Below, in pieces: positions 17,139 to 63,272 of a DNA stretch of 64,000 nucleotides; the stretch's first letter is position 1, and every line of letters begins with the position of its first letter. Source of the stretch: Chrysomallon squamiferum (Eukaryota > Animalia > Mollusca); the NCBI GenBank assembly GCA_012295275.1, contig CM022671.1:9052001-9116000 (forward strand), read 5' to 3'. A program made the position numbers and the translations under genes. The notes beneath the pieces were generated by a model that worked only from the letters and a program-made list of their open reading frames with translations, had not been told where the DNA came from and did no database searches.

Positions 17139-20100
17139 CTAAAAGACTAGAAGAGTGGTGAATCTGTAAATTCTGTAACAACCCCACGACACAATCCCCA
17201 GCACACTGGCTCGAAACATCCATCGAACTATTTTAGATAACAACGAGGGACCTGGAACTCTGCAATGAGAGAGAAATATGTCTTTATATTATATCAGAAA
17301 GAGTTGATTTTTTTGTTTTTATTAATTCCATTATTGAAATAATTTGATTAAAGTGCTTGACAATTAAACTTGTAATTTTAAACATGCACTGAATTGTTTT
17401 CACTTGAAGTAAACAGTCTCCATATACTTACACCATGATGTCTTCAATACTTTGTTCTTTGGACCAGTTTGCAACAATACCAGGAACGTGGCCAATGCCA
17501 ACCACACCAACAACAACAGAAGGAATGAAACCTGGAAGGTAAATATTATGTTTGATGTACTTTATTTCAAACATATTAGCAGGTTAAAACAAAAGTAGTA
17601 AACATTCCAGTATAAGACTGTTACAACATCTGTTTCTATCAAAAGGTATTAAATGATAATAAATGTTATTTTCCAGTTTAGAGTTCTCTGGTTGATAAGC
17701 ACAAACATTATGATTTTTCATTAGACTGAAACACCAGTATATGATCAGTAATGAAATATTATTATTCAAATAGGAATGAATCATTTTATTAACATATTTG
17801 AAATTATGTAAGTGCCCATTATAAATATTTCATTTTTTTCCCCATTATAAAATATTTTTTATTTCAATGTAATTATGAAAGTGAATATTGTGGTAATTTG
17901 TATTCTCTCATAATTTTATTGTTATTTTTACCATTCTTAATATTTTAATTTATTTTTACTTTTTTATATATTTTTTTATGCTATGGATATAATTTAAGTG
18001 CAGAAAGAATTAAGAACATAAAATTTCCAGGAATAATAATTAATTTGGATAGTAGGTAAAAGAATGCTATTGTTTGGTTTAACATGACAAAACACTATGC
18101 AGTCATGTGCTTTCTTTTTTACAAAACCTCTCTAAAAAATACCACTTTCCTCAAAAACAGGAGCAATAAACTACTTTAGAGAAAAAATTAGCAGTTAACA
18201 TATTTTTTTAAAGATAAAATTAATAACTTCCACAAACCTTCTGGTACCTCAGAACAAGGTATAGGACGAGCTGCAACTTTTAGTGAATGTGCTAAATATA
18301 TATCTCGTTCATCAACAAACACATGACTAAGGGCAGGGAACTCTCCAGTCATTTCTTTCAACATGGCTTCCAACAAATCACGTTGCTTGCACTTTTCAAC
18401 ATCCTCTTTGCTGAAAAGTATGAAAAGGAGAATAAATAAAAAAATTATTTAAAATTGTATGTATTCTTTTGTTTTAACATTTAAATTAAAACATGAAAAA
18501 TGAACCTAATGAATTGCAGTGAAAGCAAACATTTTTAAAAACCAGTTTATGTAAGGTTTTGAAAAAAATATAACACCTATCATTGATACAACATCCCAAC
18601 AACTATATCACTATATACATCCCAACAACTGTAACCATTCATTAAAAGGATTTTTTTTAAAATTTTGATTAAAAAAATACCTAATAGGATCTTTTGATGT
18701 AATGAGGTACCACCCTAATCTTAATTTCTGCCACCATGACAAAGCTGCTAATGCCCTTTTCAGAGTTATCTGGATTGGTCGGTCACCTAACTGCAAACGG
18801 CAACCAGGAACAAGACGAGCCTAAAAAATTAACTGAATTTTATTTATTTATTCTTTCCAATGTACGTGTAAAAAAAATAAATAAAAATTAAAAAATTAAA
18901 GAAAGAAAGACAAAAAAACTAAATCAGTCATCATTGAATGTGGTAATTTTGGGGTCTTTTATTTCAACATTCTGCACTCTTTTATTGTTATTATTTGCTG
19001 TTACCAAAGACTTTAAGTGCAAATGAACAATAACACTGAAATCTACTTAAACAAATTCACCCAGTAAAAGCATAGTCCTAGTAATTGATAATTTAGAAAA
19101 ATAAAGATTTTTGGGTAGTGCTGACCTCAAAAACAGTTATTGAAATGGTATTTATCTGCAGTGGTTTCATTTTAGATACTATATTTTCAAGAGATTTTCT
19201 TTCACATAGCATGCTGTATTAATACCAAATGTTTCCTAAAAACAACAAACCTCTTGAAATGCCCTTCTAAATTCACCTCCAGGTGCCATGCCTAGTTCCT
19301 TAGTAAGATGAGCTGACATTGACAGTAATAACAAATGCATTACACCTTGAATAACCCCACTCTGAAAATTAAAACAATATTAATAAGTGTAAACCATATT
19401 ATTAAACTATGATAAGCTAAAATAAATAACAATATTTTAAAATAAAGAACCATAATTAAACTAAAACACAGAATTGGAAATACAAATTTATAGCAACAGG
19501 CATAATTTCAAGACAACATGTGTTTTTTCCAACATTAAAATTTATATTTATGTAATTCAAAAAAATATACATATTATTTGCAAATATCTTAAGTTTTTGT
19601 TTTTATTTAGCTTCATATATCATTATACTTTTGTAAAAGTAAAACCTTTTACTATTTTTTTTTTTTAAAGATTTCTTCAGAATGTTTGCATATATCGTTG
19701 GTGAAATTGTATAATTAAAAATAATAAATAAATAATAGCAAACCTGTTTTATTGCCATTCTGATTTTATCAAAGTTGATATTTTTGGCTTCCTCTAAAAG
19801 TGTTGATTCATCCAGCTCCAGTATATTGATTCTACTTTTACATAACTCGACCATAACAAAGTCTGGCTGTACTGCACGGATTATCTGAATTTTAAGACAT
19901 AGTTTAGATCAAATGTAAAACTGTTCTTCAAACTTGTAAAAAAACCACAAAAAAAACATTCTTTTCCAAAAAAAAATTAAAAATTAAAAGAATTAAAAAT
20001 GAATACATAGATTGTCACTGAAACTGAAATTACATATCTGGTGACAAGGTAATATTAAATAATTTGTTTTTAATATCAACATTTAGAATGTTCCTTAATC

Positions 20101-21076
20101 AAAATCAGTTACCTTTGCAACATCTTCCTGACTCTCAAGACTGAAGTGAGCTGTTCCCACCAGGTACACCTTCCCACCTGTGGATGCATTTAGGACTGTA
20201 ACAGTTTCTGGAAGGACTGGATTGGAATCTCGCCTACGGATAGGAAATGACAGTTCAATGTTGTCTTCTACATCAGATTCATCTCCACTCTCATCATCTC
20301 CAACATCTTGAAAAAAAAATACAAACCAAAATAATCATAATATGGATGTTATTTCATATCAAACTATCATAAGAAATAATTGAATCTGTAGAAATCAAAA
20401 ATCAGTGCAATGTTACAAATTAAGCAATAATTTATGCTATTTATAATTCAAAATGTTAATTACCATCATCGGAATACAGTTCCTCTAATTCCAAATTACC
20501 AACATCAACATTCAGTGCTGATGTCACATCCTTTGGCAAGATGTCTGGAGCTGAATAGTTTGTATTTTTATTTTGTATGTTTTCAGACATGTCACTGATT
20601 ATTTTTAAATCTTTTCTTTGATCACTTTCTTCTGCTGCATCCTCTTTAGAAATATCATTTCCTGTTGCCGACAGTTTATTGTGATCTAGAACATCATTTG
20701 CTGTCACATTTGTTGCATTATTTCCACTTAAATCTGAAATATGTATTGTTTTAACACACACACATGCAAAAACACAAACATATTTATATGCACAAATAAT
20801 CTTGGTATTTTAAAAAATAAAAACAGATTTTAAAATTATTTTTTAACAAACTGATGTTAGTTATTATATATAAATTATTCCATTAAGATGTTTTAGTAAT
20901 GTTGGTTCAGGAACACACTTGTGTAACTAAACCCCTTTCTATGCTAAAAGAAATCAAATTCATAAAATGGAACAATACTACTACTAATAATAATTTAAAA
21001 AAAAAGAAATTAAAAAAATATTTCATTTAAAAAACAAAAATAAATAAATTAATTAATTAATAAATTTACCTGCCAT
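17139..21076 (-). CDS. TRABD: TraB domain-containing protein, 9 coding exons
   Basis: Approximate exons: 21076-21070, 20733-20464, 20306-20114, 19884-19745, 19361-19252, 18821-18681, 18411-18238, 17531-17431, 17258-17139. Motifs VYLVGTAHFSLESQEDV, QPDFVMVELC, LGMAPGGEFRRA, LGDRPIQITLKRA, VFVDERDIYLA, VVGVVGIGHVPGI and a C-terminal hydrophobic anchor. Confidence 0.93.
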
Positions 21077-21880: not shown

Positions 21881-22693
21881 CGTCGTGGACTGTCAATAAT
21901 TAAGTTCGTACACTGATCCATTAATACGCCTTGTAATTTAGTGTTGTCAAAAATGCATCTGTAGATGTTAACGTTTTTATATTTTAACATTTTACTGTCG
22001 CTATTGCATAAGTAATATAATGTGATGGATGTCATTAAACAAGGTGCATGCAATTATATGTGTCGTGTTCATGTTAACAGTTATTAGAGTTAATAATAAT
22101 AGTTTAATATTAGTTAAGCATTGACTTCGCGATAAAAACATTTTCTCATGCATATCGCTGATGTAATATGATATTATTTTTTTGGCATGTTATAGCTAGT
22201 ATTGTCAGGTATGTCAAGTAAAATAATTTAACAGTCATCCTAGCTAAATTATTGTACCTTTTAAAATATCATTTATTATTATTTTTGTCGGATCACTCAT
22301 TTGAAATATTAATTATAATTATTGGCATAGTTAATTTTCTGAATTTATAAAACTGACAAATTTAGTGACAAAATTTATATTGTAATTTGCTAAATTACGA
22401 ATAATGTTATCGTGTATTATTATGTTAAATGGGAATTTTCAGGAATGAAAATTCTGACTGACTTTGATGAATTCAGTCATTAACTGATACATATAATTCA
22501 AAATATCTTTTTCAACCATATATATTAATATTTTGAAATAGTAATGCAATTAAGAATAATTCATGTATGAAATAATTTCATTATATTTTAATGTTTTATT
22601 CTTTTAAACTTTTTTAGATTAACACTTTTCTCAAATAGACTTAAACAATTAAATAAAACTTGATGTGAAATCCAACTGAATTTCTATGAAACA

Positions 22694-25600
22694 ATGGGCA
22701 ATATAGAAGTGCACGATTTTGCTCCAGTCCATGATTATGAAAGGAAAGAACTGAACCTCAGTAAAAAGATGACTTACAAACAGTACCTAAAGGTATGAAG
22801 ATTTAATAAGTTACCACCTTTTTCTTGGTTAATTTATATTAATTTATAATTTTTCTAAGACTAAATTTTCTGTTTCAGTTATGTATAAATTTATAAATAA
22901 TTTTGAATTATATGATTTAGTTTGACCACATAATACTCGTTTTTTATCTTTAAAGAATATGTTGAAACTGTAACATTTACATAATTTTAATTTCCTTTTG
23001 AAAAACTAAATCACCATCTCTTTTGTTTTGATAATGATATAACTATAGTTAGCTTTTGAAAAGATCAGCAATCATGGTTACAGAGAAAAAAATATATATG
23101 TTATAAAAACTAATTCATTTTTTTAAATTTCCAGCACTTGAATGGTGAAGCACATGAATCAATGCTAACAGAATTACCATGGAGTATTCGAGATTCAATC
23201 TGCTTATATGAAAGGATGAATGTTTCCTTTAACGCAATCACAGAACTTCCAGCAGTACTTCCACTCAGACTACCCCATCTCTCTCACCTCGACATCAGCC
23301 ATAACCGGTTGACAGAGCTTCCTGAAAGCTTTGGCTTGCTTTTTCATCTGAGAACTATTTACTTGAGTCACAACAAGCTCAAGGCACTGCCCCAGTCTTT
23401 CGTTCATCTTGTGAAACTAGAAAAAATAGACTTATCTCACAACATCTTGCGGGAATTGCTGGAGGATTTTGGAGAAATGGAAAATCTTTCTAAGCTGAAT
23501 GTTTCTAATAATAAATTGAAGGCACTTCCTCTGTCTCTTGGCAACTGCTCCACATTGACGTTACTGTTGGCTGTGTGCAACAAACTCGACTCTCCACCTC
23601 AGGCTATATGTAATGAAGGATCTGAAGCCACTATTGAATTTCTGAAAAAAATGTACATATCTTCTTCAGCAAGAGATTTCCCCAGACCTGTCACACCACT
23701 AAACGACTTTCCTAGAGTGAAAGGTTTTCAGCTGCATAGTTCTGTAGCAAATCCACATTCTGCACATGTGCAGTATATACAAGAACAGACACATACAACA
23801 AACACACCCAGCAGAATCAAAACACCATTGTTACCTCCCCTTGGTGCATCTTCTCTTGATTCTTTTGAATTGAGAGACAGGATTGTAGGTGAATTTTTAA
23901 ATTATTGTTTCTAGATCAACAAAGAAAAGAATAATTTATTAACCACTGAAGTTTTATGTTCTTTAAATGGTATATAATAATGTTATTCAGTCTATCAGAT
24001 GGAGATCTATAAATTGTTGTCATTATAAATAAGTAAAAATATATATATATATATAGTTTGACTTCAAAAATTTTGTGGTATTATCTTTATTTATGATTAG
24101 GTTTTATAATATCTTGCTTGATTTTATTAATATATTACATGTTTTAGGAATGATTTATGGTGCTGCCATTGGTGATGCTATTGGTATAGCAACTCGGTGG
24201 ATGTCCCCAGATGAATGTAACTTCTACTACAGTCATGAAAATATTGACTATGCTGAGATTGTTCAGGATGAACACAGAGTGAGATGGAGAAAAGGAGACT
24301 GGACTGGAAATTTTGATTTATTTGTAAGCCACTTTTAGTGTTGAAATGTCAGTGAATGACTGTGTTTGTTTAATTATATCTGAACATATTTTAATTGTGG
24401 CATCATACTACAATAATCTATGTGGCTGAACTCTGTGAACTCCAATGGTTGTAATGATAAACAGCTTAGTCCTGGTTCCAAAATGCCAAAAAGCACAATA
24501 CTGCACATGAATTTATTCAGTATGAAAAACTGAGCTGTTAAATTGAATAGAAGAAGTTGTCTACCTCGCTGTTTCGTCTTTTTAGCAGCCATTAGGATAT
24601 TTCTGTCTGAATATATGTGACTGCTTTAGAGGTCAAACAGGTTCTAAGAGTTAATTTTAATACTTCAAGCTAACATGGCAAAGTTTCACATGTTTATTGT
24701 TGTATAAGAGTTCTCGCATTATGCATATTCAAAGATAATGATTAATAATTTCTTTTTTTGTTGTTAATTGGCTAGATATAATGATTAGTTTATTGTTTGT
24801 TTGTTTATTAATACATTATCACATTAGATAGATAATATCCAGGCAAAAATGACTATAAATCTCAAAGTACATTCAAGTAGAAAAATCTTCTGATAATTAT
24901 TAATTTTTTATTTTATAACATTTTGTTTGTTATTTTATCACATTTTTTTATTGCATTATTTTTTTTAACCAATAAATGATTGGCATTATATTTTTATTTT
25001 TTATAATTATAAGTAGTTGCATTTTGATAATTTATAAAGGATTTCAGTTTCATTAATATAAATTAGTAAAGGTTTTGGTTTAAATTTTTTGTTTAAATTT
25101 TTTCTTAAATAGATGTTAGTGTTTGAGTCTATCACATCTTGGGGTGGTGTTGTGGATGAATTGGACTTTGCTAAGAAATTGGTGAACTGGTCGAAAAATG
25201 GCTTTCCAGAACTTGGTGATTCAGAAGGTGTGGTTCTTAGTGAAACAATACAGCAGGTATACTGTTGAAGTGAAATTTAATTTTTTAAATTAAATTTCAG
25301 TAATCAAGAATGAATCTGAAGTAAAATATTTTTATTTTATTTTATTTTTTATTATTTATAATTTATTATTATTATTGTTATTGTTATTATTATTATTTTT
25401 TTTTTTTTTTTTGACTGACTGACAGTGAAATGATTGTAAATTTATCTTGTATTTTTTTTTTTTTTTTTTAATTATTATTATTTTTTTTTTGTAAATGTCT
25501 TCATTTCAGATTTTAACAAAACCAAAATTCACACAAGATCCACACAGTGTAGCTGCAGATCTGTTACAGTCTCTGAAATCAACAACACCTTCACACATAT

Positions 25601-28237
25601 CAAATGGGTCATTGCCAACCATTTGTCACTGCAAAGATGACAGTGAAGAAAAATGCAAATGTCAGCCGGCATACAAATCAATCCTACGCAGTTACAGCAG
25701 GACTTCTGTAAGCACATGTGACCAGTTTGGCACAGATAATGGAGCTGTGGTTAGAACTGCAGTTTTAGGTTTGTTTTGCAGTTTTTTACTTATATGAAAA
25801 CATAATCTAAATACATTTGTAAACATAATGTTAGTATAATTTACTGTATTATTAGCAAAGGTTGATATTACAGTTAACAGAAATGTCAACCTTTGCTATC
25901 AATAAAGTATGACATACAAAATAAGAAGCAAAACAAGGATTCATATAAGACTTAAATTTTTCTAGCATTTCCATTTTGAAGCTACATACATATACATTTT
26001 GAAATTTATCTGACAATGACAAATGTTAAGAATCTGAAAATCAGTTTTTTAATTTTAGCTGTCTAATACTAATACTAGTTTCATTCAGATGTATGATGTG
26101 TGAGTTCTTGCTCATTGAGGGTAATAGACAAATTGAAGATATACATCTAGTTTGTAACTGTATCTGTCTTGTGTCTACTCTGCCCAGGTGTTCCATTCTT
26201 CCACAATTTGCAGGAGGTTGTTGGCAATTCCTCCAGGATCTGTCTGGCAACTCACGCAGACTGCAGATGTCTAACCAGCTGTGTGATGGTCTCCACACTT
26301 GTAGCTCTTATGTTGCAAGTAAGCTTCTTTATAATGACCAAAATGACGTAAATAAATCTGTTAGGTAAGGTTTATGAGCAGACTGATTAACGAAACCCAG
26401 CATAAATCTTTGCTGATGTTGAGAGATATGTTCAACGTTTAGTTTAAGCCCAAGACTTGGAATTAACCCATGTTGGTGGATCTGTGACAGTTGCATTCAA
26501 GGTTTAGTTTAAGACCTTCTGGTTAGAAAGAAAGAAAGATATAGGTATCCTTAGTAGTTTTCAGGTATTGCCAATGAATGGTAACAGATGGTTGTTCTTC
26601 AGTAAAAATAATAACAGCTAAAACTGAAATAAGGTGAAGTGATATTAAACAAGTATTCATTCTACAGTTATTTATTGGTCCAAAAAGATGAACTTTAATT
26701 AAAAATATTAATTACAGATGTGTGTATGTATATATATATAGATATATATAAATAGATACACACACATACATTTAAAAACAAAATGAAATTCAATAATTCA
26801 GAAAATTATTTTTTCTTATGTGAAATGTAATATCTCTGTTTTATAGCAAATTTTTATTTGTTAATTAATTTTTAATTTTGTTTATTTTCACTGGTGTTTT
26901 TTGTTTTTTGTTTTTGTCTTCAGGGAAAATATTCATTGACAAACTCAGAATGTGTTCAGAAGATGATTGATGAAGCCTGTGAACTGAGCTTAAATCATTT
27001 ACAAAATAAAGAACAGAAAGAAGATTTCAAATCTCATGTTAATATGAATAATGTCAAAGAGTAAGTGACTACATGTAAATGTTAGTAAGCACTGGAGAGA
27101 AATATTTCTTTAGAAGTAAATATTAAGAAAAAGAATAAAATTAGTTTTGTCCTTTAATAACAATCCAAAGCTAATGCATCAAAGCAGAATCTAGAATTGT
27201 GATCTTTGAATTTCTTTAGATATCATTTAGTTTTTTAATTAACTTTTCTAATTCAAATGATCAGTCATTCATAAGCTTAATCCAGCGTTCAGGAGGGGAG
27301 TTTTTCATATTATTTATTTCTTTTTTCTTTCAGTAATGACAATTTTATTTTGTGCAATTATTTAAATTTGTTTTATCCATTATTATTTTATACATATATT
27401 TTTAATCTGTAAATACTGATTGTCGCAAATTTGTAATTAATGGTAAGTGGTCTTTGCAACAAATATTAAATATACTCAGTAATAAATTTACCATTATTTT
27501 CTGCACCACACCTTAAAATATGATGACTTAGAAACGATTAAATACAAGATCAGCATGTCTAATATTTGCTGTTTGATGTGTAATATGAATAAAACTATAA
27601 TTAGGTAAAGCATAAGAATTACATATGAAAAGAAATTAATAATATATATAAAATTTTATTCAGTTTAAAAGCAGATGGAAGCAGACAGAAAAGCTACACA
27701 CACAAACCAATGGCAGCTGGAGTTCTTGCCTTGAAGTCGGGTGAAGGTTTTAAGTAAGATTTACACATTAATATTCAAATTGTTTTAACTTTACATTCTT
27801 GTATATTTTACTATGTTCAGTGATCACATTATTGTTATTATAACCCTGACAGTAACAATTCTTTCCTCATATTAGCATTTTACATAATTCTTAACCCTTT
27901 CTTTAAGAAAAGCAACCTTTTTAAGACTGTTTTACCATTTGTTTTGGGAATAAAAATGAATGTAATGATCTATTTTTAAAAGTATATTGTTTACATTTTT
28001 CCATGTAAAAGGTATTAATATTGAACTTATTTTGCTTATTTCAGAAAATTCATTATGAAACTGGTGCACGAGGCAGGGGACAGCAACAGCAACGCTTGTG
28101 TTGCTGGAGCTCTGCTTGGGTGCAAAGTTGGTTACTCGCATCTTCCTTCCAGCTGGATTGAAAACTTACGCAAGAAACAAACAACTTGGCTAAACACAAA
28201 AATTAACTTTTTTCTTGATATGATGGGCATTCCTTAA
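22694..28237 (+). CDS. Leucine-rich repeat + ADP-ribosylglycohydrolase (ARH/DraG-like) fusion protein, 9 exons, 660 aa
   Basis: Exons 22694-22792, 23135-23888, 24148-24323, 25113-25256, 25510-25768, 26188-26318, 26924-27060, 27664-27753 and 28045-28237 give 1983 nt with all phases consistent. It has about six 23-aa LRRs followed by ARH motifs GMIYGAAIGDAIG, GDWT, GFPELGD, DNGAVVR, THAD and AGDSNSNACVAGALLG. Confidence 0.9.
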
Positions 28238-29939: not shown

Positions 29940-30827
29940 TCATTTCACTGAATGCCAGTTTGCAAGTGCATTTCGTATTGTTGTTTCACCAAGCTGTGGG
30001 AAGTATGTTAAGCAACACTTCAACAAATCTTCATCGTTTTCAAACGTTACACTGTCAAGTTCATGACTATCATTTTCAGTCTTCTTGCTATTGTTAACAA
30101 ACGCTATAGCATTTTTGTTGGGAAAGGCAATCACTCGTACACTGAGATGGAATGAAGAAACCTCTGGTAGTGTGTAGACATTCTCAAAAACTTCATCTAC
30201 TTCATGTATGTCAGAGAACAAATGCATGTCAAATGAATAAAATCGTCTAAATCCATCAATGTATAAATCAAAAGGAAGTGGCTTCTTAGGCTTCATGCCA
30301 CCTTTGCCATGCATGCGTAGAATCTTCCCATCATGCTTTATGAATTTATATTCCAGGAATGATTCATAGAACAATGGTGATTCTTTAGTAAAATCCATGG
30401 AAACAGCAGTGAATGTGGGATAGCCACAGGCTATGTCAGCCAGATAGAGATCACCATCAACAACAACATTTTTTACCAACACGATGATATGGTTGTCAGG
30501 ATATGTTACAGTGGATGTTACTGTAGCACATACGAAGTACACCTCATAACCAATGGCTTGCAGAAGGAAATAGAGAAACACGTTTTGTGTATAACAAAGA
30601 CCTGCACGTTTTGAAAACATATCATCTTTAATTTCTGCCACTGTGGGGCGATGTCGCTTCTCTGGGTGCAAGGCCATCAGGGTTACATTCTGAAAGGGAC
30701 AGGTCATCTGTAGTCCAAGAATTATGGAGTTAAGAAAAGGCAGACCTCGTTTGACAATATGTTCTTCAGCCCCACTGATGTTGAGATCTTTCAGAAACGA
30801 TGACGCTTCTTCTTTTGTTATGTTCAT
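29940..30827 (-). CDS. Arylamine N-acetyltransferase family protein, intronless CDS, 295 aa
   Basis: PFQN motif, RAGLC (catalytic Cys; RGGWC in canonical NATs), DNHII (His) and YLADIACG (Asp). The ATG follows an acceptor, so a 5'UTR exon lies upstream, candidate near 33690. Confidence 0.9.
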   Translation of the reverse strand: MNITKEEASSFLKDLNISGAEEHIVKRGLPFLNSIILGLQMTCPFQNVTLMALHPEKRHRPTVAEIKDDMFSKRAGLCYTQNVFLYFLLQAIGYEVYFVCATVTSTVTYPDNHIIVLVKNVVVDGDLYLADIACGYPTFTAVSMDFTKESPLFYESFLEYKFIKHDGKILRMHGKGGMKPKKPLPFDLYIDGFRRFYSFDMHLFSDIHEVDEVFENVYTLPEVSSFHLSVRVIAFPNKNAIAFVNNSKKTENDSHELDSVTFENDEDLLKCCLTYFPQLGETTIRNALANWHSVK

Positions 30828-31320
30828 CTGAAGTGAGCAATATGTACTTTCATTAATATTATTTTTTTTTTTAACAAGGTTAGGAAATAATGAAAAATAT
30901 AAATAATATTTGTTTAATGACCATATTCATGTTTACCATTAACTCTTATGAGTAAAAGAATATGTTAATGTGAGGAAGAAAGAATCAAGTTTTATTTTAT
31001 AATACTCTCTTTTTTAAGCCATTGGTGCCATGTGTGGTTAAGGATCATACAGGCAATGAGACAGGAAATGGACTGCAGCCAGACAATGGAAAGTATGTAT
31101 GATCTAATCATTTTGCAATAACTGATTAATGTATTAGACAACTGCCAGATGTTCATGATAAAACTTTATTATAAAGCACTTCACACTAATAATTAGAATT
31201 TTATTTAGAGCACATTCGAAACATATTTCTAGACAGCATATGACAAAAGCTCTCACTGCAATGCATTAATGAAAATAAAAGTTCAGTTCAGATCTGCTCT
31301 GTGGGTGTGTGTGTTAATGA

Positions 31321-35066: not shown

Positions 35067-36971
35067 TTATTCCACCCTTGGTAAAGAAGGTTTATTTCTG
35101 ATCGATGATCTAGTCAAACTTTTCTTCTTTAATTTCTTTTCTGGAGGGTTATCGCGATTGTTGTTGTCCTTGTCTTTACTACCAATAGGGCATGTTTCTT
35201 CTGCGATGCCAATGACTTTGATTCTTGCACTCGTGAGGCTGCCTTCTTTAGCATTTATCTTTTGACAAAAATTGTTTGGTGTGGATGTAGATGAAACTTT
35301 ACTTGGTGAAATATGATTGGGAAAATGTTTCGTCGGACACAGCTTGGATCGCAGGTTGAATTTGCGAATTATAAGTATCATTCCAGTGAATACAAAGAGA
35401 AAAGACCCAAATACAGCGCCGAGAATAATGTTTGTTTTGTCGGTAGTAGCTGGTACTCGTTCTGTTGTCTTCAACAGTGTTTGGCTTGTTGTTAGCGGTA
35501 TCTGTATTGTTGTAGATATTATTTCAGTAGTCTGGTCCGTTCTTTCAATGTCTGACGTAGTTTGTAAAGTACCTAAAGACACCGCTGTTGTCGATGTTCT
35601 TTCTTTAATAGTCTCAGTAAACGTTTCTGTATTAGTTGTTACTTCACTGGCTAATCCTTCTTCGGTTCTTGCTTTGACTGTTGTGTTCGCTGTTCCTGTT
35701 GTTGATGTGATCATAGTTGTAGTAGTCAGGCACTTTTCTTCTAAAACTGGTGACGCGTTGTAAAATGTTACATTTACAACCGAAGCCGGTTCGACACAGA
35801 GCAGGTCTGGTGACAAGTTGGTTTCTTTATATTTTAAATAATTTTCCATTTCATCCTGTTCGCGAATAAACTGTATTAGCCACAGCGTATCGCAGTCACA
35901 CAACCAAGGATTGTTATTTAGAAACACACTGATTATTTCTCTGTCAAAGAAAGAAAGAAATTCAACAGGTAATGTTTTAAGTTTGTTGTTTCTAAGATCA
36001 GTGATTATGGCTGTACAGTTACTGAAAGCTTCTGCATCAATTAATGAAATTCCGTTGTCATTCAGTTTCAGCGAATTTAGGTTCAGTCCTGAAAATACGT
36101 TGGCCTCTATTGTTGATATCTGATTGCCTCCCAAGTTGAGATCCTGAAGCGACTTAACGACATATTTTAAACATTTGACAGGAACGGTCCTTAACTGATT
36201 TGATGTCGCATCTAAAAGTTCAAGAGCAGTTCCAGAAAAAGCAGTTTCAGGAATATAAGTTAATTTATTGCTGGAGACATCAACCATTCGTAAATTAGTT
36301 AAATCTGAAAAGGTGTTTGCTTCAAAGGAATTTAACTGATTTGAACTGATAAAAATTCCTTGAATATTTCTCATGAACCTGAACGAATCGGCTGATAATG
36401 TTTTTATTTTGTTTTCCGACAGAAGAAGAAACATAAGATTGGATAAACCAGAAAAGGTATCGTTACTGATTGCAGTCAATGAATTGTTTGCTAAATTAAG
36501 TTCCATCAGGCCTGTAAGATTCTGAAAGGATCCAGCATGGATAGTAGATATGTTGTTACTTGGGAGGTAAAGCCATTTTAATGAAGGCACATTTTCAAAT
36601 GCATCCTGAGCAATAGTATTAATTCCGAAATCTTCAAGATTTATATACTGAAGATTTGACTTGTTTGCTAAAAGCATTCCATCCAGAACCCCATTTGGAA
36701 CGGAAAAATTATTTAGTTCCATTTCTATCACCGTGTTAGGTATGTACTTAGGATGTATTCCTACACATTTGACTTTAATAACATCGCCAGAGCTAGGATC
36801 ACGTTCACAAAGGGAACACTGTGAAGGGCAAGCATTAGATGCTGATGGTTTTGGTGTCGTAGACACTGATGGCAGAGTCGTAGATAGGGATGACACTGTC
36901 GTAGAAGTTAACGAATGTATCGAACAGCAGCTCAGAATAAGATTAATAATAAACATTAGTAATAGTTCCAT
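35067..36971 (-). CDS. Intronless LRR type-I transmembrane protein, 634 aa
   Basis: Signal peptide, LRRNT (CPSQCSLC...C), about eleven to twelve 24-aa extracellular LRRs, LRRCT (NNNPWLCDC...C...C), Thr-rich mucin-like stalk, TM segment IILGAVFGSFLFVFTGMILII and a ~100-aa basic tail with no TIR domain. Confidence 0.92.
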   Translation of the reverse strand: MELLLMFIINLILSCCSIHSLTSTTVSSLSTTLPSVSTTPKPSASNACPSQCSLCERDPSSGDVIKVKCVGIHPKYIPNTVIEMELNNFSVPNGVLDGMLLANKSNLQYINLEDFGINTIAQDAFENVPSLKWLYLPSNNISTIHAGSFQNLTGLMELNLANNSLTAISNDTFSGLSNLMFLLLSENKIKTLSADSFRFMRNIQGIFISSNQLNSFEANTFSDLTNLRMVDVSSNKLTYIPETAFSGTALELLDATSNQLRTVPVKCLKYVVKSLQDLNLGGNQISTIEANVFSGLNLNSLKLNDNGISLIDAEAFSNCTAIITDLRNNKLKTLPVEFLSFFDREIISVFLNNNPWLCDCDTLWLIQFIREQDEMENYLKYKETNLSPDLLCVEPASVVNVTFYNASPVLEEKCLTTTTMITSTTGTANTTVKARTEEGLASEVTTNTETFTETIKERTSTTAVSLGTLQTTSDIERTDQTTEIISTTIQIPLTTSQTLLKTTERVPATTDKTNIILGAVFGSFLFVFTGMILIIRKFNLRSKLCPTKHFPNHISPSKVSSTSTPNNFCQKINAKEGSLTSARIKVIGIAEETCPIGSKDKDNNNRDNPPEKKLKKKSLTRSSIRNKPSLPRVE

Positions 36972-37404
36972 TTCGCAGTTTCTCTGTGAGAAAATGTCTT
37001 CTCAAACCAACTTTCAAACTTTATGCCACGTTTTGCATTCCGTTACTAATGGTTCAAGTTTAATGCATTTTTTTATTACAGGACGGTTTTTATCATTCTG
37101 TTCTTAAATACTAAGCAATTCCCCTATCAATTCTAGAATTTAATTAAATGTGTTCTTATGTGAATACAAAATCTGATCTTTTAAATCCTCTTATTTGAAT
37201 CATATGACTTCTTTCTACATCTATTAAATAAATATGTCACGGGTGTACACAGGGGGTATATTCAACACCCACCATTACAGCTATTTGAGACCGAACATAA
37301 TTTCTTCTTGCAGTTTTACATAAAATGTACTAACTTTTAAGTACCGCAAGAAGGTGACTAAATGTTGCTTTTAGTTTATGTCGATTATGATATTATGAAG
37401 ATGA

Positions 37405-38544: not shown

Positions 38545-40546
38545 ATGGTTTCCGTTCAAGCCAGACGACAGAGAAAAATCGATCGATCTGAGGGTTCAGG
38601 TAAAATGTAACCCTGTCCAGTGATGTCTCAATATGCCTGACTTTAATACGTGCTACCCAGCGCTGCAACCTCAAAGAATTCCAGGAGCACTTCCAGTCTG
38701 AAGTTTAGGCATTCCAGAACTGACGATTCCAACAAATTAAATATTATTTTAATGCTTTTTTTTAATTATTTGATATTTATATTCTTTATTATTATTTTTT
38801 TAAATTAACAGCAAGTCAGTTTATGCTTTCTTTAAACATAAATAGGTTAAAATGAAATATAATAAAATAAATAAACAAGCAAACAAACAAATAATATTTT
38901 GATTTTTAAATCGATTTTTTTCTCTAACTTGGTAGCTGAAGCAATGTTAAACAAATAACTTTTCCCCTTTGTTATTTAGTATTTTTCTTTAGTACAGCTT
39001 ATAAAGATCTTTTGAATTTTAATAATTTGCATTCGTGCTTATATAAATATTATACATACATACATGCATATATTACATACACACACTCACGGCTAAATCT
39101 CTATTAGCAGCAATTTTGAGATTTATCCCAAAATGCATTTTATTATATATTTTAAATCTGAATGACAGCCACGTGTATTTGACAACCACTTTTGCCTAGT
39201 GTCTGAGTGTAAGGTACGCATAGGTTATCAAGCGAATGTTGCGGATTGATGAATTTATTAAGTGAAATTAATAAATGTTATAAAATTCATTATAACACAA
39301 ATTCATTTAGGATTCAGTGCTGGTGTTATAATGAGGTTTGACTATATATAACAAATAAAACTTCATAAATAATATCAAAGACTTTTGTATGTGTTTTCCT
39401 GTTTATGAGAACGTATAATCTGTAATGACAGCTGTAATATTTTATATTAATTTTATTTATTCGTTTATACAATTTATATTTCCTATGTGTTTCTATTTTC
39501 TAGCTGATGGACAACACAAACAAACTATGAAAGCACAAACAAAACTATTAGGAAATTTTTCCACTCCTTACTTTCGGCCATGGGGATCTCAAGGTGTCAC
39601 CGCAGCTGTTGCCAGCCTTTTCTGCATCTGGATAACACTGACCAACGTTCTGCTGATTGCCATTCTGCTGACGAACAAAAAGCTTCGACGCCAGCGTCAG
39701 ATTATTTTCGTTCTGCACATAGCTCTGGCCGACCTGGCAGTGGGGCTCTTTTACTGCCCTCTGACGGCGGACTTTTTCATAAAACAGATCTGGACTCACA
39801 GCTGCGACAGTCTGTTCTGGTGGAACACGTTCTTCCATCCCGTGAGTTTTCTCAGTACTCACTGTATAGGTTTGGTGAACTTCTACCAGCTGTGTGACTC
39901 CTGCTGTCGCCTGAACGTGCGATCTTTTGTCAAGAACTTCCTAACTGTGCTGATTCTCACTCTCCTCTGGTTCTACCTTATCAGTCTGTTCTTCATGCTG
40001 CAGAATTTCAGATCACGTGAGATAAAAGTCCTTATCGATACGAAAGATGTGTGTCTGTCGTCAATGGACTACCTGGGTGCTGTTGAAACGGCTATGATGG
40101 TTTATTTCATTCCAGCAGCAATTACGACGATACTGTATGTTTCCTTGATAGGTCTGCGCACTTTCAGATCGTCTCCCATCCTTCACGAAGAACTGAATAG
40201 CCCCGAGCCGCCACCTGTTATTTCCCTTCGTCTCTTAGGCGTAGCTAATGTCGTCAGTTTGTTGATGCCGCTTCCCTACTTCAGTACGTTGGTGAGCGTT
40301 TCTCTAGGAAGCTGCACAACCTTTTCCTGCATGTCATGGATTTTACCCGTCATGACCGTCTTTGAATGGCTTCTGTTTGCCAAATCTGGAATACAGCCTT
40401 GCATGTGGTTGCTGAACTCACAATTAACGGAGGCCATTTTTCCGATAGTGCGTAATTTCCGGTCTGGACCAACAAGGAACCACGTGCAAATCGATCAACC
40501 TGACGTCGACATGCAGGGTCCAGAAGATTCATTTCACGAAATTTAG
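38545..40546 (+). CDS. Divergent orphan class A (rhodopsin-like) GPCR, 2 coding exons, ~365 aa
   Basis: Exons 38545-38599 and 39504-40546 (phase 1). Seven hydrophobic segments, with TM1 TN, TM2 LALADLAVGLFYCP, ECL1 W..C, TM4 W, ECL2 Cys, TM5 YFIP and TM6 LPY. Confidence 0.85.
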
Positions 40547-42769: not shown

Positions 42770-44965
42770 ATGGCTGCAGATCGCTCTCCGAACATGGGCA
42801 ACAACGGCAGAAGAAGCCCGAAAACAAAGCCAGTCATTGGGGTAAATTTTCTTGTTGCTTTTTTTGTTTTTTGCGTGTGTTTTTTTTAAATTTAAATTAA
42901 TATTTTTAACTGTTTATAATTAAAAATACTATCCAGTAAAACTTTAACTTATTTTTAATACATATTTATTTTTATTACTTTTTTTTTTTTTTTTTTATCG
43001 TTTCAGATATTACTGTTATCACTGTTGTTGTTGTTGTTGTTACTATTATTTTTGCTACTGTTTGTTTCAGCATCATCATCACCTTTTTTCTATTTATTTG
43101 TTTTTGTTTACGGATTTATTTAAAACAATTACTTTTTTTTTTCTTTTGCAAAGTGATGGTATAGCACTAAATAAATAAATATATAAATAAATAACCATAA
43201 TCTCGTTTATATATGTGTGTGTGTATGTGTGTGTGTGATTTGGTATATATTTTATTTCATACTTTTATTTGTATTTTTATTAATTATTTATTTATTATTA
43301 ATAGCATTCGTGTGTCTTACATACTTTTTTGTTTTCACCATAACTACATTACGTAGATGAAAAATATTTTATAATCATTATTACGATATTTGCATGCTTA
43401 CAAAAACCTAAACAGTTTTACTTCTTTCTTTTTCATTTTCTATAATAACGTATAAATCTTCAATCTTAAAGCTTGATTAAACTAGGTTAATTACATCACG
43501 TATGTCAGTGGTACATATGTAGGGGATATGTAAGATACACAAAATGCATAAACACATGTAAAACCTCACAAAAAATGTTTCTTGGCAACATCTCTTCATG
43601 TTTTTCAGTTAAAATATATGTAAAACTTATACGGTTCGTCCTCTACAAATCTTAAAGAAAGTATTACACTTCTGATCATTTGCCAATATATTTACCATAT
43701 GTTTCCCTTTCCTTTATATTCCGTGTAAATATTTGCAATGTAGAACTTTGAAATCTGTTTGACTTCTTTTGTCCGATCTAAATATTCAGTATTTTTGAAA
43801 GATCAAAATTGTCTTTTGTGTTTTTGATCTTAACATTTTTGAAAAGTTCAGCCAAAGGTGAAGGTAAAAATATTGTGAGAATGTCACGAATGCTTCATAT
43901 ATCTTCAAATACAACCGCAATAACAACAATATGTAATAATACTAATAAACTGCAGCTAAAGAGTAATAGTTTTATAACTGTTGTGTTACGTTTTACGAAT
44001 TAACAAATCCAAAAGCCGCATCATTAAGAATTTATTTCAAGACTCAAGCTGAGTGTAGTTATTAAAGTTATTACAGGAATGTAACATATTGTATATCTTC
44101 AAATTAAAATGACTGAACTACTTCTCATAAATACATGAAAGCTGTTCCAGGACAAGCACGTACTAAATCTGAATCAATTAACATAATGCCACCAGTAAAA
44201 CAACAACAACAACAACAAAAAATTGGAGTTCGTATTGATACATTCATGTAAATAATAATAATAATAATAATTTAAAAAATAAAATAAAAATGTGAATTTG
44301 ACACCGATAGTTTTCTTGTAGTGTTTATTATTGTTTGAAGGAGTTCTGAGGTTGTTGGGTTTTTTAATAGAAATTTCAATACAATCTTTTATTATTTTAT
44401 TTTATTTTTTTAAATAAATAAATTAAAAAAAAATAAAAATAAAAATAAAAGAAAGAATGTTGTAAACGTTATCAATTTCAGGCGCTTCCTCCAGGGTACG
44501 CTCTCAGGGGGTATGCCACACGGAAGACAATAGCCCAGGGACTGCTGGACTTAGCTTTGCTTCTAGCCAACGGCTCCCAGCTCAAAGCCTTGATCCAGAC
44601 TCCAGAAGAAAAACGCGACTATCTCTACATTCCAGTCTTCGTCCTCATAGGACTGTCAGTCTTCATTCAAATTTCTGTAGGAATTCTCATCATCATTCTG
44701 GGGAACATGGAGGCGAAAACTGACCAGGAACAGCGACGTGCTAACATCATGAACAACGTCACCTTTAGTCTTGATTCTGTTCATCACCGTTATCAACGTC
44801 TTCATCTCGGCTTTCGGAATCCGATTTTCAGGTCAAGAGGTCACTTTTAACGAATCCTTCAGCCAGCCAGTTGGACAGGTGTCAAAGACAGTGCTTCAGG
44901 ATTTCAGCTGGCCTCCTGTGACAGACACACGTGTTTTAACGGAATCAACTACAGAGGGTCTTTGA
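42770..44965 (+). CDS. Ninjurin family protein with a +1 frameshift in this sequence (assembly error or null allele)
   Basis: Exons 42770-42841 and 44482-44965. YATRKTIAQGLLDLALLLANGSQLKALI is the ninjurin signature. The last helix LILFITVINVFISAFG is in another frame and is restored by removing one base at ~44764-44767 (184 aa). Confidence 0.88.
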
Positions 44966-59878: not shown

Positions 59879-60971
59879 TATTACTATTATTATATTAAAA
59901 AAAATTAAATTCACTATCATTTGTCATCTTCTAGCAGCCAGTTATTTTTTAATACACCTATTCATACACAGGGAAATCTAAATCACAGTTTATAATACCG
60001 GAAGTAACGGTTGGAGCTCTAAAGAGTCCACTAAGGACAGTTGATCCTGAAACCCATTAATTCTTAATCAAGTAATCCATCACTATTGATGTTTTGTATT
60101 TAATATCATATCAAAAAATAATTAACTGTTTTATTTTACCGAAATAATTTTTATATGTTTTTAATATAAGCAATGCTGTTGTATAAAGAAGAAACTGAAG
60201 AAAAAAAAATCAAGTTAATTTTGTTCTGTCTCTGGGAATGCTGGTCACAGTGATACTGCAGAGCAAGAATTAATAGATCATTTTAATGGATAACATTTTT
60301 TCTAGCTAGCTTCAGCACTAATACTGCCACTGATAAAGCTTGCAACAACAAATCCAAAAAAAAAAAGGAAAAAAAAAGAAAAAGAAAATGTAATGATTTT
60401 GAAGGCTTGCAAAACACTAACAAACAAAATATAGCCAGTATATCAGTCAAAGAAAAAGATAATAAGCTGTTCTGTGGTTAAAAAAAAATAAAAATAAAAT
60501 ACCATTATTAAGTTGTTACAAAGATTTAGAATCAAATAAAAAATATCCCTTTCAGGATTGTATCATTTTGAAAAAACGAAAAAAAACGTTTCCAGTAAGA
60601 AATTCTGAAGCAGCAAAGTAGTTAAGATTTTCAGTTTTGGTTTGAACAATGTTGAATTATGATGAAGTGCTGAAATGAATGGACTTCATATGGATTCTTT
60701 CAAAAATCAAGTTCACCTATTTTCAATATCTATCTATATATATATATATATATAAGATTAATTAATAAAATAAAAATCTCCAGAAATGTTTAAAAAGTAA
60801 CCATTATAAGTTATGTATTTTTATTATCTGCTTTCAGGATTACCAATGAGACCCTATGTCTGAGTATTCTTTGTGCTAGGAGGATTCAGCTGCAGAGATC
60901 AGCAGTTTGCAGGATCAAATCTGGTCCTTGTTCTTAATAACTTACATTGTGTCCATCACAACTCAAACAAT

Positions 60972-63272
60972 ATGTCATCCTTCACAAACTTCCGTGATAA
61001 CTTCTCCTCTGGAATGAACTTCCTGAAACGCAGGTTCAGCTCAGGTGACCTCCAGGGGGAGCTCAGAGATGATTTCATTCCACCTGCCAATGTCAGGAAA
61101 GGACCGTCACCAAGTGCTCCAAGCTCACCATCCAAGTCTTCAGCTCCAGGAATAGGCAGAACCTTCTCTTCCACTGTGAAGCCATCTTATAACAAGGAAA
61201 GATGCAGAACACTTCTTGTAATAGATGACCACCATACAGACTGGTCAGTATTGGTCATTTTCACACTTCTCTTTCTTCCTTACAGGACAGAATTTACATA
61301 TCTTCTTCTCCTTACAGTCTGTTACTTTTTAATTCATTTTTCTTCTCCAGCATTTCTAACTCTTATTACTACTGATATCATTTATTTATTATTATTTTTT
61401 TGTTGTATTCAATTTTCATTTATTTTTTTTAATCTATAACATCACAGAAGTTTCTGTGCACTGTACATAAAAGACAAAAAAAAAAAAATAGACTGATCCT
61501 TATTTCATGAGATGTCTTAGTCATTAAAAACATTAAGTCAGTATCTCAGTTTATGCTTTCCTTACCTTTTATTTGTTTATCAACATTAATGGTCTCATCA
61601 CTGTAACACTGATGTCTAACCAGAAACCATGTTTGTAGAAACAAATACTGTAATAGTGTCTGTCAGTTACTGGATGCTTCATTTCAAAGATGGATGAAAA
61701 TTAATTTCCTTATAAAGTATTTTTTTAGTCTGAAGTAGAACAAGATATGTGTTTCTAGACATATTCACAGAAAACTGGAATTAAATAAACTTATATGTTT
61801 AAATTAATATTATAGAAATGTCATGACCAAATATGCATGGATCATCTGCAAAAATTAGGACACTAAATGCCCAAATTTGGAGATTACAAGCCAAAATATT
61901 TTTGTATCAGATGTCAAAACATGGAAATCTGTTTCCAAAATGTTTATTTATCTGGACCTCTTCTTTTTTTTCTTGTGAAATACTGTGTCTGAAACTGTCT
62001 CAGTTTTCAATGGAGAAAACTTTCTTAAAATGAAGGAGAAAATCTCTTGCTTACGTAGTCAGAAAATGCATTAATTTTCAGTCAGATTTCTTCATGATGC
62101 TTGCATTGTCATAAAAGTAAGCTTTGCTTTTTCCTTCTATTACATCTTCATTAGCTTTGTTTTTACTTCTTTTTTAGAAATAAAATAAAATTGTTAAAAA
62201 TTCCATGGTACTTTCACTTATTATCCAGTAAAAGCATTAGCTAACAAACAAGAAACATTACAATAGATCAAACAACAAACAAGTATAAATCTATATTTGC
62301 AGCTTTCATAAAGTGCTTTGAATCCATTACTAGTCAAAAACCAGAAATATTTTAACAAAGGCATTATGTAAGAGATTTATTAACATAGTTTCAAAAAAGA
62401 AAAAAGAAAAACTAAATTGATAAGTGAAAAAAAAGAAGAAAATGTTTATATGTCTACTGACTTAAGTACTTGTTAGTACTTTTATCTTTCCCTGAACACC
62501 AAAAATCCCTCAGACAAATCATATTTGAAGAAGCACAAAAGCTGACAAAGGACTTGATTTACAAGTATTTTATTTCTAGTCTGCCTCAGTGAAGGAGAAT
62601 GAAAACTATAAAAGGAGAGGATTATAAGAGCAAGAAAAAAAATGGAAAATATTTTATTATATTTCTGGGTGTTTTTTTTTTAAAAATAATTAATAATATT
62701 GTTCAATAATTTTTTTGCAAAGTTTCTACTGTCTATAACTATTTTTCAAGCTAAAAATGTATATTAAAAAACCCACAAAATAATATAACATTTTTTAAAA
62801 ATTGTTCTTCAAAGCCAACTAAAGATCTTTAGTTTTTTATATATAATAGTAATCATTATGTAAAAACAGACCTGTTGTAATGATAACAAAAAATTATGAC
62901 TTATCTCTAGAGAAACAATTCCTTTCTTCTGAAGAATAATTTAAGCATTCATTATTAAACCATACGAAATGCAGTTACATTTATTTCCTGGTTATTTTAG
63001 GTAATATGGTCTCTGATGAACCAACCAGGAAGAATGCAACAATGATTGGCATTAAACAGCAAATGTGTACATTGGTGAATTCTAATTATTTTAATAATCA
63101 TACAGTTAATCATTAATAATATTCCTATTACCTACCTTATACATTCTGTGTCACAGAGGACAAATGTATATTACTTTTAAAATCTGTAATTAAATAATTT
63201 ATTTTTTCTTACAGGACAAAATATTTTAGGGGTAAAAAGATCTTTGGAGACTGGGATATACGTGTTGAACAG
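60972..63272 (+). CDS. SYN: Synapsin, 5' partial (first two coding exons; gene continues beyond the window)
   Basis: Exons 60972-61243 and 63215-63272. Domain A MNFLKRRFSSGDLQGE with the PKA site, domain B PSPSAPSSP, and the start of domain C LLVIDDHHTDW|TKYFRGKKIFGDWDIRVEQ. Confidence 0.96.

Follow-up and report, generated by a model that had tools for sequence, protein, structure and literature searches.

Domain fusion and the fate of the catalytic site

What function does an ADP-ribosylhydrolase (ARH) fold serve when it is joined to leucine-rich repeats (LRRs) in a single cytoplasmic-type protein? The question is raised by a gene of Chrysomallon squamiferum (GCA_012295275.1, contig CM022671.1) in a stretch of 64,000 nt, positions 9,052,001–9,116,000 of the forward strand, termed the window here. 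A first-pass annotation of the DNA had described nine exons encoding one 660-residue protein with LRRs and a complete ARH fold, and had proposed an intracellular sensor of pathogen ADP-ribosylation. The loss of the metal-binding aspartates, a Met-Gly start and a conserved disordered linker are three points absent from that annotation.

Gene structure and transcript

The coding part of the gene comprises nine exons at window positions 22694..28237 on the plus strand (Table 1); all eight introns are GT..AG, and the coding sequence of 1983 nt gives 660 residues and a stop without internal stops, in agreement with the single protein proposed. Pfam LRR_8 matches exon 2 (E = 2.6e-18), and ADP_ribosyl_GH (PF03747) matches exons 3, 6 and 9 (E = 9e-7, 4e-4 and 2e-7, respectively). 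The junctions 22792/23135, 23888/24148 and 24323/25113 are spliced in RNA contigs of all three RNA runs examined (of four listed, all from one study); the second of these had been singled out for confirmation. Furthermore, RNA contigs continue past 25256 into the very start of exon 5. For exons 5–9, support comes from one contig that has 852 nt remaining where these exons total 810 nt, and from the abalone orthologue, which matches over the full length (64.6%, 663 columns, 15 gap positions). In run X5, whose library type is not recorded, intron 1 and most of intron 2 are present unspliced. The spliced contigs and the full-length orthologues together rule out that the LRR and ARH parts are separate genes. 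The extent 22694..28237 given previously holds for the coding part and falls short for the gene, since the transcript contains a non-coding first exon ending at about 22043, which places the gene start upstream of 22694; to reach 22618, the contigs skip 574 nt (X1, X3) or 409 nt (X1), again with GT..AG borders. The window contains one copy of the gene.

Table 1. Features of the LRR-ARH gene, in window positions
Feature	Position	Strand	Evidence
3' end of non-coding first exon; true start further upstream, alternative donor at about 22208	22000..22043	+	RNA contigs
5' UTR exon with ATG at 22694, residues 1–33	22618..22792	+	RNA contigs; in-frame stop directly upstream; begins Met-Gly-Asn
Coding portion of exon 1	22694–22792	+	ORF and RNA contigs
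Coding exon 2, residues 34–285: N-cap, LRRs, C-cap, linker, first ARH residues	23135..23888	+	Pfam, repeat register, RNA
Six 23-residue LRRs, residues 59–196	about 23210–23623	+	Repeat register
Linker motif, residues 225–270	23708..23845	+	Conservation and pLDDT
Coding exon 3, residues 285–343: ARH start, R301, T337-G338-N339 (24303–24311)	24148..24323	+	Pfam, RNA, alignment
Coding exon 4, residues 344–391: W353/E359 patch, V384/S386	25113..25256	+	RNA, alignment
Coding exon 5, residues 392–478: variable low-confidence insertion (residues 411–462), then D467-N468-G469	25510..25768	+	RNA end at 25256 reads into exon 5
Coding exon 6, residues 478–521, with T499-H500	26188..26318	+	Pfam, homology
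Coding exon 7, residues 522–567	26924..27060	+	Homology
Coding exon 8, residues 567–597, with Y578 (equivalent of the adenine-stacking tyrosine)	27664..27753	+	Homology, alignment
Coding exon 9, residues 597–660 and stop: D609-S-N611-S612 (28079–28090), C-terminal N651, D655, P660	28045..28237	+	Pfam, alignment

Distribution and conservation of the family

Orthologues exist in about 67 named animals, with sponges and amphioxus at the two ends of the range. All but one of these species have a single cluster, although duplicates of very recent date could go unseen at the 90% clustering level. Fused LRR-ARH proteins are also found in amoebozoans, Anaeramoeba and Diphylleia, which rules out a lineage-specific novelty. 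Word-limited database searches, which are weak evidence of loss, found no named fused protein of vertebrates, tunicates, nematodes, flatworms or holometabolous insects. Public databases already list the proteins as 'uncharacterized'; the labels 'p53-induced protein with a death domain' and 'SHOC-2-like', among others, derive from the LRR alone, and the ESM Atlas returns merely generic LRR and ARH clusters with scores below 0.9. The gene is under purifying selection: all 13 coding differences between individuals are synonymous, where 22% of sites are.

The literature search found no description of an LRR-ARH protein, as had been supposed. The architecture is absent from PMC1314882, PMC9738213, PMC11833690, PMC6309922 and PMC7050489, although figures, supplements and subscription papers could list it, and from the available parts of PMC4245714 and PMC3417536. 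The accompanying statement that ARH members stand alone proves too strong, as fusions with zf-UBP, zf-RanBP, WD40 and the macrodomain are published (PMC4245714, available part) and many appear in protein searches.

Erosion of the metal-binding site

Metal ligands were mapped through alignments to DraG, MJ1187, Tri1 and ARH3. A coverage filter kept 238 of 251 ARH-bearing proteins, one mis-modelled protein (P0018) was omitted from site scoring, and unnamed rows were grouped by the ARH-domain tree. The C. squamiferum protein keeps one of the four metal-binding aspartates, with T337-G338-N339 where active enzymes have T-D-D, and D609-S-N611-S612 where they have D-x-D-T; the signature of the binuclear centre (T76, D77, D78, D314, D316 and T317 in ARH3) is thus broken. 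Simultaneously, the flap glutamate (ARH3 E41, DraG E28), of minor importance for DraG and crucial for ARH3 (PMC7050489), is replaced by R301, and Glu occurs at this position in none of 41 mollusc rows. The residues kept are D294, T337, D341, N468, G469, R473, T499, H500, Y578, D609 and S612; with these the protein could conceivably hold a single metal or bind ADP-ribose.

This erosion extends across the eumetazoans. The aspartate count is one in all 40 molluscs scored, zero in all 20 chelicerate-clade rows and never above two among 94 eumetazoans scored; all four are kept in both sponges, in 20 of 21 other fused proteins and in 108 of 115 proteins without LRRs. The intact LRR-fused members belong to sponges, Balamuthia, Pelomyxa, Protostelium, Anaeramoeba and Diphylleia. 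D609 and S612, the equivalents of ARH3 D314 and T317, persist in 40 of 41 mollusc rows, with the D77 equivalent lost, and all 11 deuterostomes retain D609; the chelicerate clade (20/20) and the cnidarians (4/4) have lost the D314 equivalent, and at the bridging D316 position a single one of 96 eumetazoan rows has Asp. Intact stand-alone ARH paralogues coexist in the same animals in Bulinus, Corticium, Sycon and Dendronephthya.

In the ARH-domain tree, built with the motif columns removed, the animal fused forms group together (SH-aLRT 94) with the eumetazoans nested inside (86), neither node being starred. Neither one common origin for all fused forms (p 0.74) nor a placement of the eumetazoans beside the outgroup (p 0.62; the quick search missed better trees) is rejected by AU tests. 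The evolutionary argument uses only one change, the degeneration of an intact site, with the site intact in the outgroup.

Remodelling of the ADP-ribose pocket

In the pocket of the C. squamiferum protein, Y578, N468, G469, T499 and H500 are kept and G384, G386, M472 and G577 are replaced, V384/S386 standing where relatives have a G-x-G loop. Each of G384, G386, W410, M472, G577 and Y578 is conserved in at least 89% of 116 relatives without LRRs and falls to 2–25% in 52 eumetazoans; 28 of 41 molluscs have His at the adenine tyrosine position. Cnidarians, molluscs and arthropods each show a different pattern of site loss, which would be expected of a pocket released from a single shared constraint. 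Meanwhile, F310, W353, E359, E487, R494, N651, D655 and P660 are conserved at 94–100% in eumetazoans and below 20% in relatives without LRRs, and the W353/E359 patch is specific to the animal fused forms. This second set of residues points to a putative new conserved surface.

Predicted fold, N-terminus and linker

AlphaFold2 (AF2) models were made of two orthologues, from abalone and Lingula, and reach pTM 0.79 and 0.85 in spite of a low-pLDDT linker. They predict an intact ARH fold, and the pTM values suggest that the LRR and ARH parts may pack as one unit. The best structural match is MJ1187 (Z 35.9, rmsd 2.1 over 294 residues), followed by Lmo0067, a Tri1-type immunity protein, ARH3 and DraG. 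Pfam and the orthologue models both place the protein in the all-helical ARH superfamily, so that the complete fold described at first reading stands, with an eroded catalytic site inside it.

No signal peptide or transmembrane segment is apparent in a hydropathy scan, as noted before: the top 19-residue values of 1.63 and 1.57 lie in an LRR and a core ARH helix, and the N-terminus is hydrophilic. The ARH start motif lies at residue 280–296 in all of the 69 (of 78) fused proteins where it was located, which fixes the LRR length, and LRR identity ranges from 40 to 75%, sponge to abalone. Conserved positions on the concave face of the LRRs are F65, N66, D132, S134 and N155. A Met-Gly start occurs in 71 of the 76 fused proteins from animals, in 12 of the 21 other fused ones and in 12 of 116 proteins without LRRs (counts that ignore relatedness), and Gly2 is present in C. 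squamiferum (MGN). The N-myristoylation pattern prefers a small residue at position 6; this residue is Val here and in 12 of 71 orthologues, and T, A, S, G or N in 51 of 71. Judged from the invariant Gly2, the protein is likely N-myristoylated.

The linker (residues 225–270) shows 61–83% identity to other bilaterians, exceeding both LRR and ARH, with motif positions F225, R227, N239, Y247, Q249, T252, T254, R260, P264, L265 and P268. It is predicted to be disordered (pLDDT below 50 over 45–50 residues in both models), and its motif occurs in none of the 24 sponge and non-animal fused forms, those with an intact site. The linker is likely a partner-binding motif. It is reminiscent of a dynein-light-chain TQT motif, but its Gln does not belong to the invariant positions.

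Comparison with known systems

The C. squamiferum protein shares the complete fold and motif order of the DraG, Tri1 and MJ1187-type ADP-ribosylhydrolases (PF03747), at merely 14–22% identity to solved members, but is changed at three of four metal aspartates and the flap glutamate, and adds the N-terminal Met-Gly, the LRR domain and the linker. The direct parent family is the eukaryotic 'Tri1-like' ARH subfamily (W-T-D-D-[TS]-D-Q / GFPELGD / G-D-A-D-T-N; 34–38% ARH identity), of which no characterised member was found in the literature. Its members stand alone or are fused to zf-UBP, Macro, NADAR or DSPc, some also to LRRs, and these relatives keep the catalytic set, unlike the C. squamiferum protein; most named protist LRR-fused forms have a longer LRR (proteins of 730–920 residues).

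The vertebrate cardiac pseudoenzyme ADPRHL1/ARH2 likewise combines a conserved ARH fold, one of four aspartates and an active paralogue alongside, and is inactive yet essential (PMC7390403, available part). In contrast to this ARH1-derived vertebrate single domain, LRR-ARH is multidomain, much older and invertebrate. The subfamily profile matches MJ1187 at 5e-35 and ARH1 at 1e-3, which indicates a different branch from ADPRHL1, and an independent origin of the pseudoenzyme is inferred, ADPRHL1 itself lying outside the alignment. Large complexes also contain ARH folds with partly lost sites (8xks, 6sga; bioRxiv 10.1101/2024.09.02.610899, available part): ArhL, its catalytic residues conserved only in part, is a subunit of the Orf2971-FtsHi motor in Chlamydomonas, and mt-SAF23 is a subunit of the complex that assembles the mitoribosome in trypanosomes. 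Unlike the C. squamiferum protein, both lack LRRs, and they belong to unrelated lineages and contexts. Cytoplasmic LRR scaffolds of the SHOC2, RSU1 and LRRC40 type also have 23-residue LRRs, and SHOC2 is among the best PDB sequence matches; this is generic repeat similarity and does not imply orthology.

Discussion

Because three of the four metal-binding aspartates are lost, the ARH domain is predicted to be a pseudoenzyme, and the reading preferred here, held at a probability of roughly 0.55, is that the likely myristoylated protein works as a membrane-anchored interaction scaffold. Anchored through myristate on Gly2, it would bind partners via the LRRs, the conserved linker and the remodelled ARH surface, and would not cleave ADP-ribose. 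The ancestor may have been an LRR-targeted active hydrolase whose site was lost on the eumetazoan stem while the linker motif was gained; the sponge and amoebozoan fused forms are likely still LRR-targeted hydrolases acting on a membrane substrate. In human ARH3, D77A, D78A, D314A and D316A each abolish Ser-ADPr hydrolysis (PMC8141533, available part), and by analogy with these mutants and ADPRHL1 the eumetazoan proteins would be without catalysis.

A catalytically dead ADP-ribose reader in ordinary signalling, with the LRRs and linker relaying a signal at the membrane, is rather unlikely. ARH3 D77A is inactive yet binds ADP-ribose 23-fold tighter (KD 0.06 uM against 1.42 uM for wild type; PMC8141533, available part), and the molluscan pattern resembles this mutant and not D314A, which loses binding in the same source; N468-G469, R473, T499-H500, Y578 and the deuterostome D609 are also consistent with binding. 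However, both metals are required to position the substrate (PMC7050489 section 22), and the losses of the D314 and D316 equivalents, the adenine tyrosine and the G-x-G loop do not easily permit a reader role across the family. An extended version is similarly doubtful: a pre-animal LRR-targeted myristoylated hydrolase would have become, on the eumetazoan stem, a domain that is dead but still binds ADP-ribose. This domain would be nature's equivalent of the ARH3 D77 trap and the first natural ADP-ribosylation reader of ARH fold, coupled by the newly gained linker motif to a membrane pathway retained in most invertebrates and lost in vertebrates.

Asn is still able to ligate a metal, and D341, D294 and H500 are retained in 89, 90 and 85 of 91 fused proteins within a fold close to that of MJ1187. 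A hydrolase that stays active on another substrate or through changed chemistry, relying on one metal or on the D294/T337/D341/H500 set and LRR-targeted to a membrane substrate, is nevertheless improbable: three aspartates and the flap glutamate are changed, chelicerates keep no aspartate, single losses kill ARH3, and all characterised ARH enzymes have a binuclear centre (PMC7050489). Most improbable is the intracellular immune sensor or integrated decoy for pathogen ADP-ribosylating toxins with which the locus was first explained. Decoys are typically dead enzyme domains, and the dead site is compatible with a decoy, as with a reader; the LRRs are of cytoplasmic type, and the invariant R227 and R260 of the disordered linker could be modification targets. 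Yet lineage-specific expansion and diversification are hallmarks of LRR immune receptors (PMC3417536, available part); against such a receptor stand the single cluster per species, the fixed LRR length, the LRR identity, the uniformly synonymous variants and the eroded pocket. Moreover, Pfam lists of the exons and full-length orthologues contain only LRR and PF03747, with no NACHT, NB-ARC, TIR or death domain. A role as an immune receptor is therefore not supported.

The membrane-anchored pseudoenzyme scaffold thus remains the preferred reading, and the analysis defines a deeply conserved, so far uncharacterised eukaryotic gene family. Next to vertebrate ADPRHL1, it apparently adds another ARH pseudoenzyme of independent origin. 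The family also forms a natural series, from intact sites in amoebae and sponges to differently degraded sites in cnidarians, molluscs and chelicerates, which makes it testable what a dead ARH fold does and whether ADP-ribose is read.

Gene structure and transcripts

The LRR-ARH gene of Chrysomallon squamiferum comprises nine in-phase exons encoding 660 residues, as the first-pass annotation had claimed; they are joined across eight GT..AG introns into a 1983-nt reading frame that ends in a stop. The GC content of the exons is mostly 37–48% (exon 7: 29%) versus 13–27% for the introns, and by Pfam, exon 2 encodes the LRRs, while matches to ADP_ribosyl_GH fall in exons 3, 6, and 9. Mapping over 22000–25300 used three of four RNA runs, all from a single study, plus a further run whose kind is unrecorded. 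In contigs of 3/3 RNA runs used, the 259-nt intron at 23888/24148, which that annotation had singled out for an RNA-seq check, is spliced out; introns 1 and 3 are likewise removed and the contigs extend into exon 5. Introns are retained in the run of unrecorded kind. Because the RNA contigs span 23888/24148 and join the LRR exon to the ARH exon, separate LRR and ARH genes are ruled out.

A non-coding upstream exon splices to 22618; in one RNA run (X1), two alternative 5′ donors (22014–22208 and 22000–22043) share this acceptor, representing either alternative first exons or UTR splicing. In the 3′ half, one contig leaves 852 nt versus 810 nt of remaining exons, and end-to-end alignment with the abalone protein (64.6%) supports the exons beyond the RNA-mapped interval. 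An insertion within the ARH domain (25560–25720, residues 411–462) is mollusc-expanded, unalignable, and of low confidence, and here carries five cysteines absent from orthologues. The likely TraB-domain gene lies head-to-head with the first LRR-ARH exon, possibly sharing a promoter near 21.6–21.9 kb, and the arylamine N-acetyltransferase-like gene is convergent with the LRR-ARH gene.

The LRR-ARH gene and neighbouring features in the window
Feature	Position	Strand	Evidence
Likely TraB-domain gene, exons	18191–20809	-	weak Pfam TraB, E 0.007
LRR-ARH gene	22694–28237 (coding)	+	PF03747
Arylamine N-acetyltransferase-like gene, single ORF	29943–30926	-	PF00797, E 2.6e-13
644-aa LRR ORF	35070–37001	-	signal-peptide-like start
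375-aa ORF	39419–40543	+	no Pfam match
Ninjurin exon	44449–44847	+	
Synapsin N-terminal match	60864–61436	+	weak

Distribution and relatives

Searches with exon 2, and with the linker-ARH part of the abalone and Nematostella orthologues, recover the LRR + PF03747 architecture in molluscs, a brachiopod, annelids, a bryozoan, a priapulid, chelicerates, crustaceans, echinoderms, amphioxus, cnidarians, and sponges; a separate search adds a damselfly, and a hemichordate model holds the linker and ARH without the LRR part. By a count of names among the matches, a single cluster represents each of about 67 named animal species, the exception being Elysia marginata with two partial models. More such proteins come from a full HMMER search and from scanning 59 selected long matches with Pfam, and the named non-animal sources among 20 proteins looked up are Balamuthia, Pelomyxa, Protostelium, Anaeramoeba, and Diphylleia. 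The range that the first-pass annotation proposed mapping runs from sponges to amphioxus and includes protists. Since fused proteins occur in those five genera, the architecture, judged by sequence, predates animals, and on the trees it may stem from one fusion event or several. In the tree, the LRR-ARH gene adjoins the abalone protein within the mollusc clade, a placement that makes a gastropod origin of the window likely.

Full-text literature searches, in which subscription journals are thinly covered, yield no description of an LRR-ARH protein, in keeping with the earlier statement that none had been characterised. ARH domains fused with other domains are already published (PMC4245714). 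Within the parent ARH subfamily, further fusion partners are zf-UBP, NADAR, Macro, and DSPc, and tandem ARH-ARH proteins occur as well (Pfam; P0189, P0190, P0206, P0210, P0225, P0228, P0229, P0235, P0237, P0275, P0282, P0307, P0178, P0180); every such protein on the tree retains the catalytic motifs, and no characterisation of any of them was found. A second Branchiostoma ARH paralogue of about 700 residues (P0231, P0352, P0353, P0362) keeps T-D-D, but its C-terminal aspartates and G-x-G loop are gone, making it a possible further, independent pseudoenzyme.

Erosion of the metal centre

The ARH domain shares the ARH/DraG fold (Z 35.9 to MJ1187; Foldseek agrees), so the fold assignment of the first-pass annotation stands, but the metal centre that defines active ARH hydrolases is incomplete, with one of four aspartates left. 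Alignment to DraG, MJ1187, a Tri1-type protein, and ARH3 places the T-D-D motif at T337-G338-N339, D-x-D-T at D609-S610-N611-S612, and R301 at the flap-glutamate position; for the first motif, we take DraG numbering to match that of ARH3. One of four aspartates is kept in 40/40 scored molluscs and 4/4 cnidarians, one or two in other lophotrochozoans and the priapulid (6 rows) and in deuterostomes (11 rows), none or one in the pancrustacean clade (13 scored), and none in 20/20 of the chelicerate clade. All four are present in sponges (2/2), other fused proteins (20/21), and non-LRR proteins (108/115). In a 56-row tree without the motif columns, a single state change is enough and the outgroup is intact, which means, on these sequences, that the change was a loss, placed on the lineage leading to eumetazoans.

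Hydrolysis of Ser-ADPr by ARH3 is abolished in each of the mutants D77A, D78A, D314A, and D316A (PMC8141533), two metals are used by all characterised ARH enzymes (PMC7050489), and ADPRHL1, which retains a single aspartate, is inactive yet essential (PMC7390403). From these three lines, we infer that eumetazoan LRR-ARH proteins are catalytically dead. ADPRHL1 is an analogue in its way of working, not an orthologue.

Conserved positions, linker, and N-terminus

Family-conserved positions comprise F310, W353, E359, E487, R494, N651, D655, and P660 in the ARH domain and F65, N66, D132, S134, and N155 on the inner face of the LRR. The 46-residue linker exceeds both domains in identity (80% to Lingula, 70% to a crinoid), and its pLDDT is below 50 in both AF2 orthologue models (abalone, Lingula). 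A linker profile trained on 70 eumetazoan rows matched 9/12 untrained pancrustacean-clade rows (E 4e-8 or better), 0/3 sponge proteins (E 0.9–6), and 0/24 other fused proteins. The linker was apparently gained on the same branch as the site decay; as this is a single event, a connection is suggestive only. The pTM values of the two models (0.79 and 0.85) suggest that LRR and ARH are packed as one body. ARH folds as complex subunits are among the structural matches, and such folds act as subunits of complexes (bioRxiv 10.1101/2024.09.02.610899). A Met-Gly start, found in 71/76 animal fused, 12/21 other fused, and 12/116 proteins without LRR, suggests N-myristoylation. Residue 6 in C. squamiferum is Val, presumably outside the myristoylation pattern.

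Function of the LRR-ARH proteins

A dead ARH domain serving as an ADP-ribose reader is doubtful. In ARH3, affinity for ADP-ribose rises 23-fold in D77A and falls 44-fold in D314A (PMC8141533); the loss of the D77 equivalent and retention of the D314 equivalent in molluscs, with N468-G469, R473, T499-H500, and Y578 retained in the C. squamiferum gene, would permit such a role. However, the bridging aspartate is Asp in 1/96 eumetazoan rows, the D314 equivalent is absent from all chelicerate and cnidarian rows, and G384, G386, W410, M472, G577, and Y578, near-fixed in 116 non-LRR relatives, are mostly replaced in 52 eumetazoans. That the protein is an altered enzyme is improbable.

The immune sensor proposed by the first-pass annotation is less probable still, although the protein may have a conserved guard-like role. 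LRR immune receptors are marked by expansion and diversification (PMC3417536), whereas each species holds one LRR-ARH cluster, the ARH start motif falls at residue 280–296 in all 69 pattern-positive proteins (of 78), and 13/13 coding differences among runs (exons 1–4, 11 from one run) are synonymous versus 22% of sites. Nor is a nucleotide-binding or effector domain present in LRR-ARH. The best reading, to which we assign a probability of roughly 0.55, is a likely myristoylated pseudoenzyme scaffold, and LRR-ARH is a real, uncharacterised, and ancient gene family.
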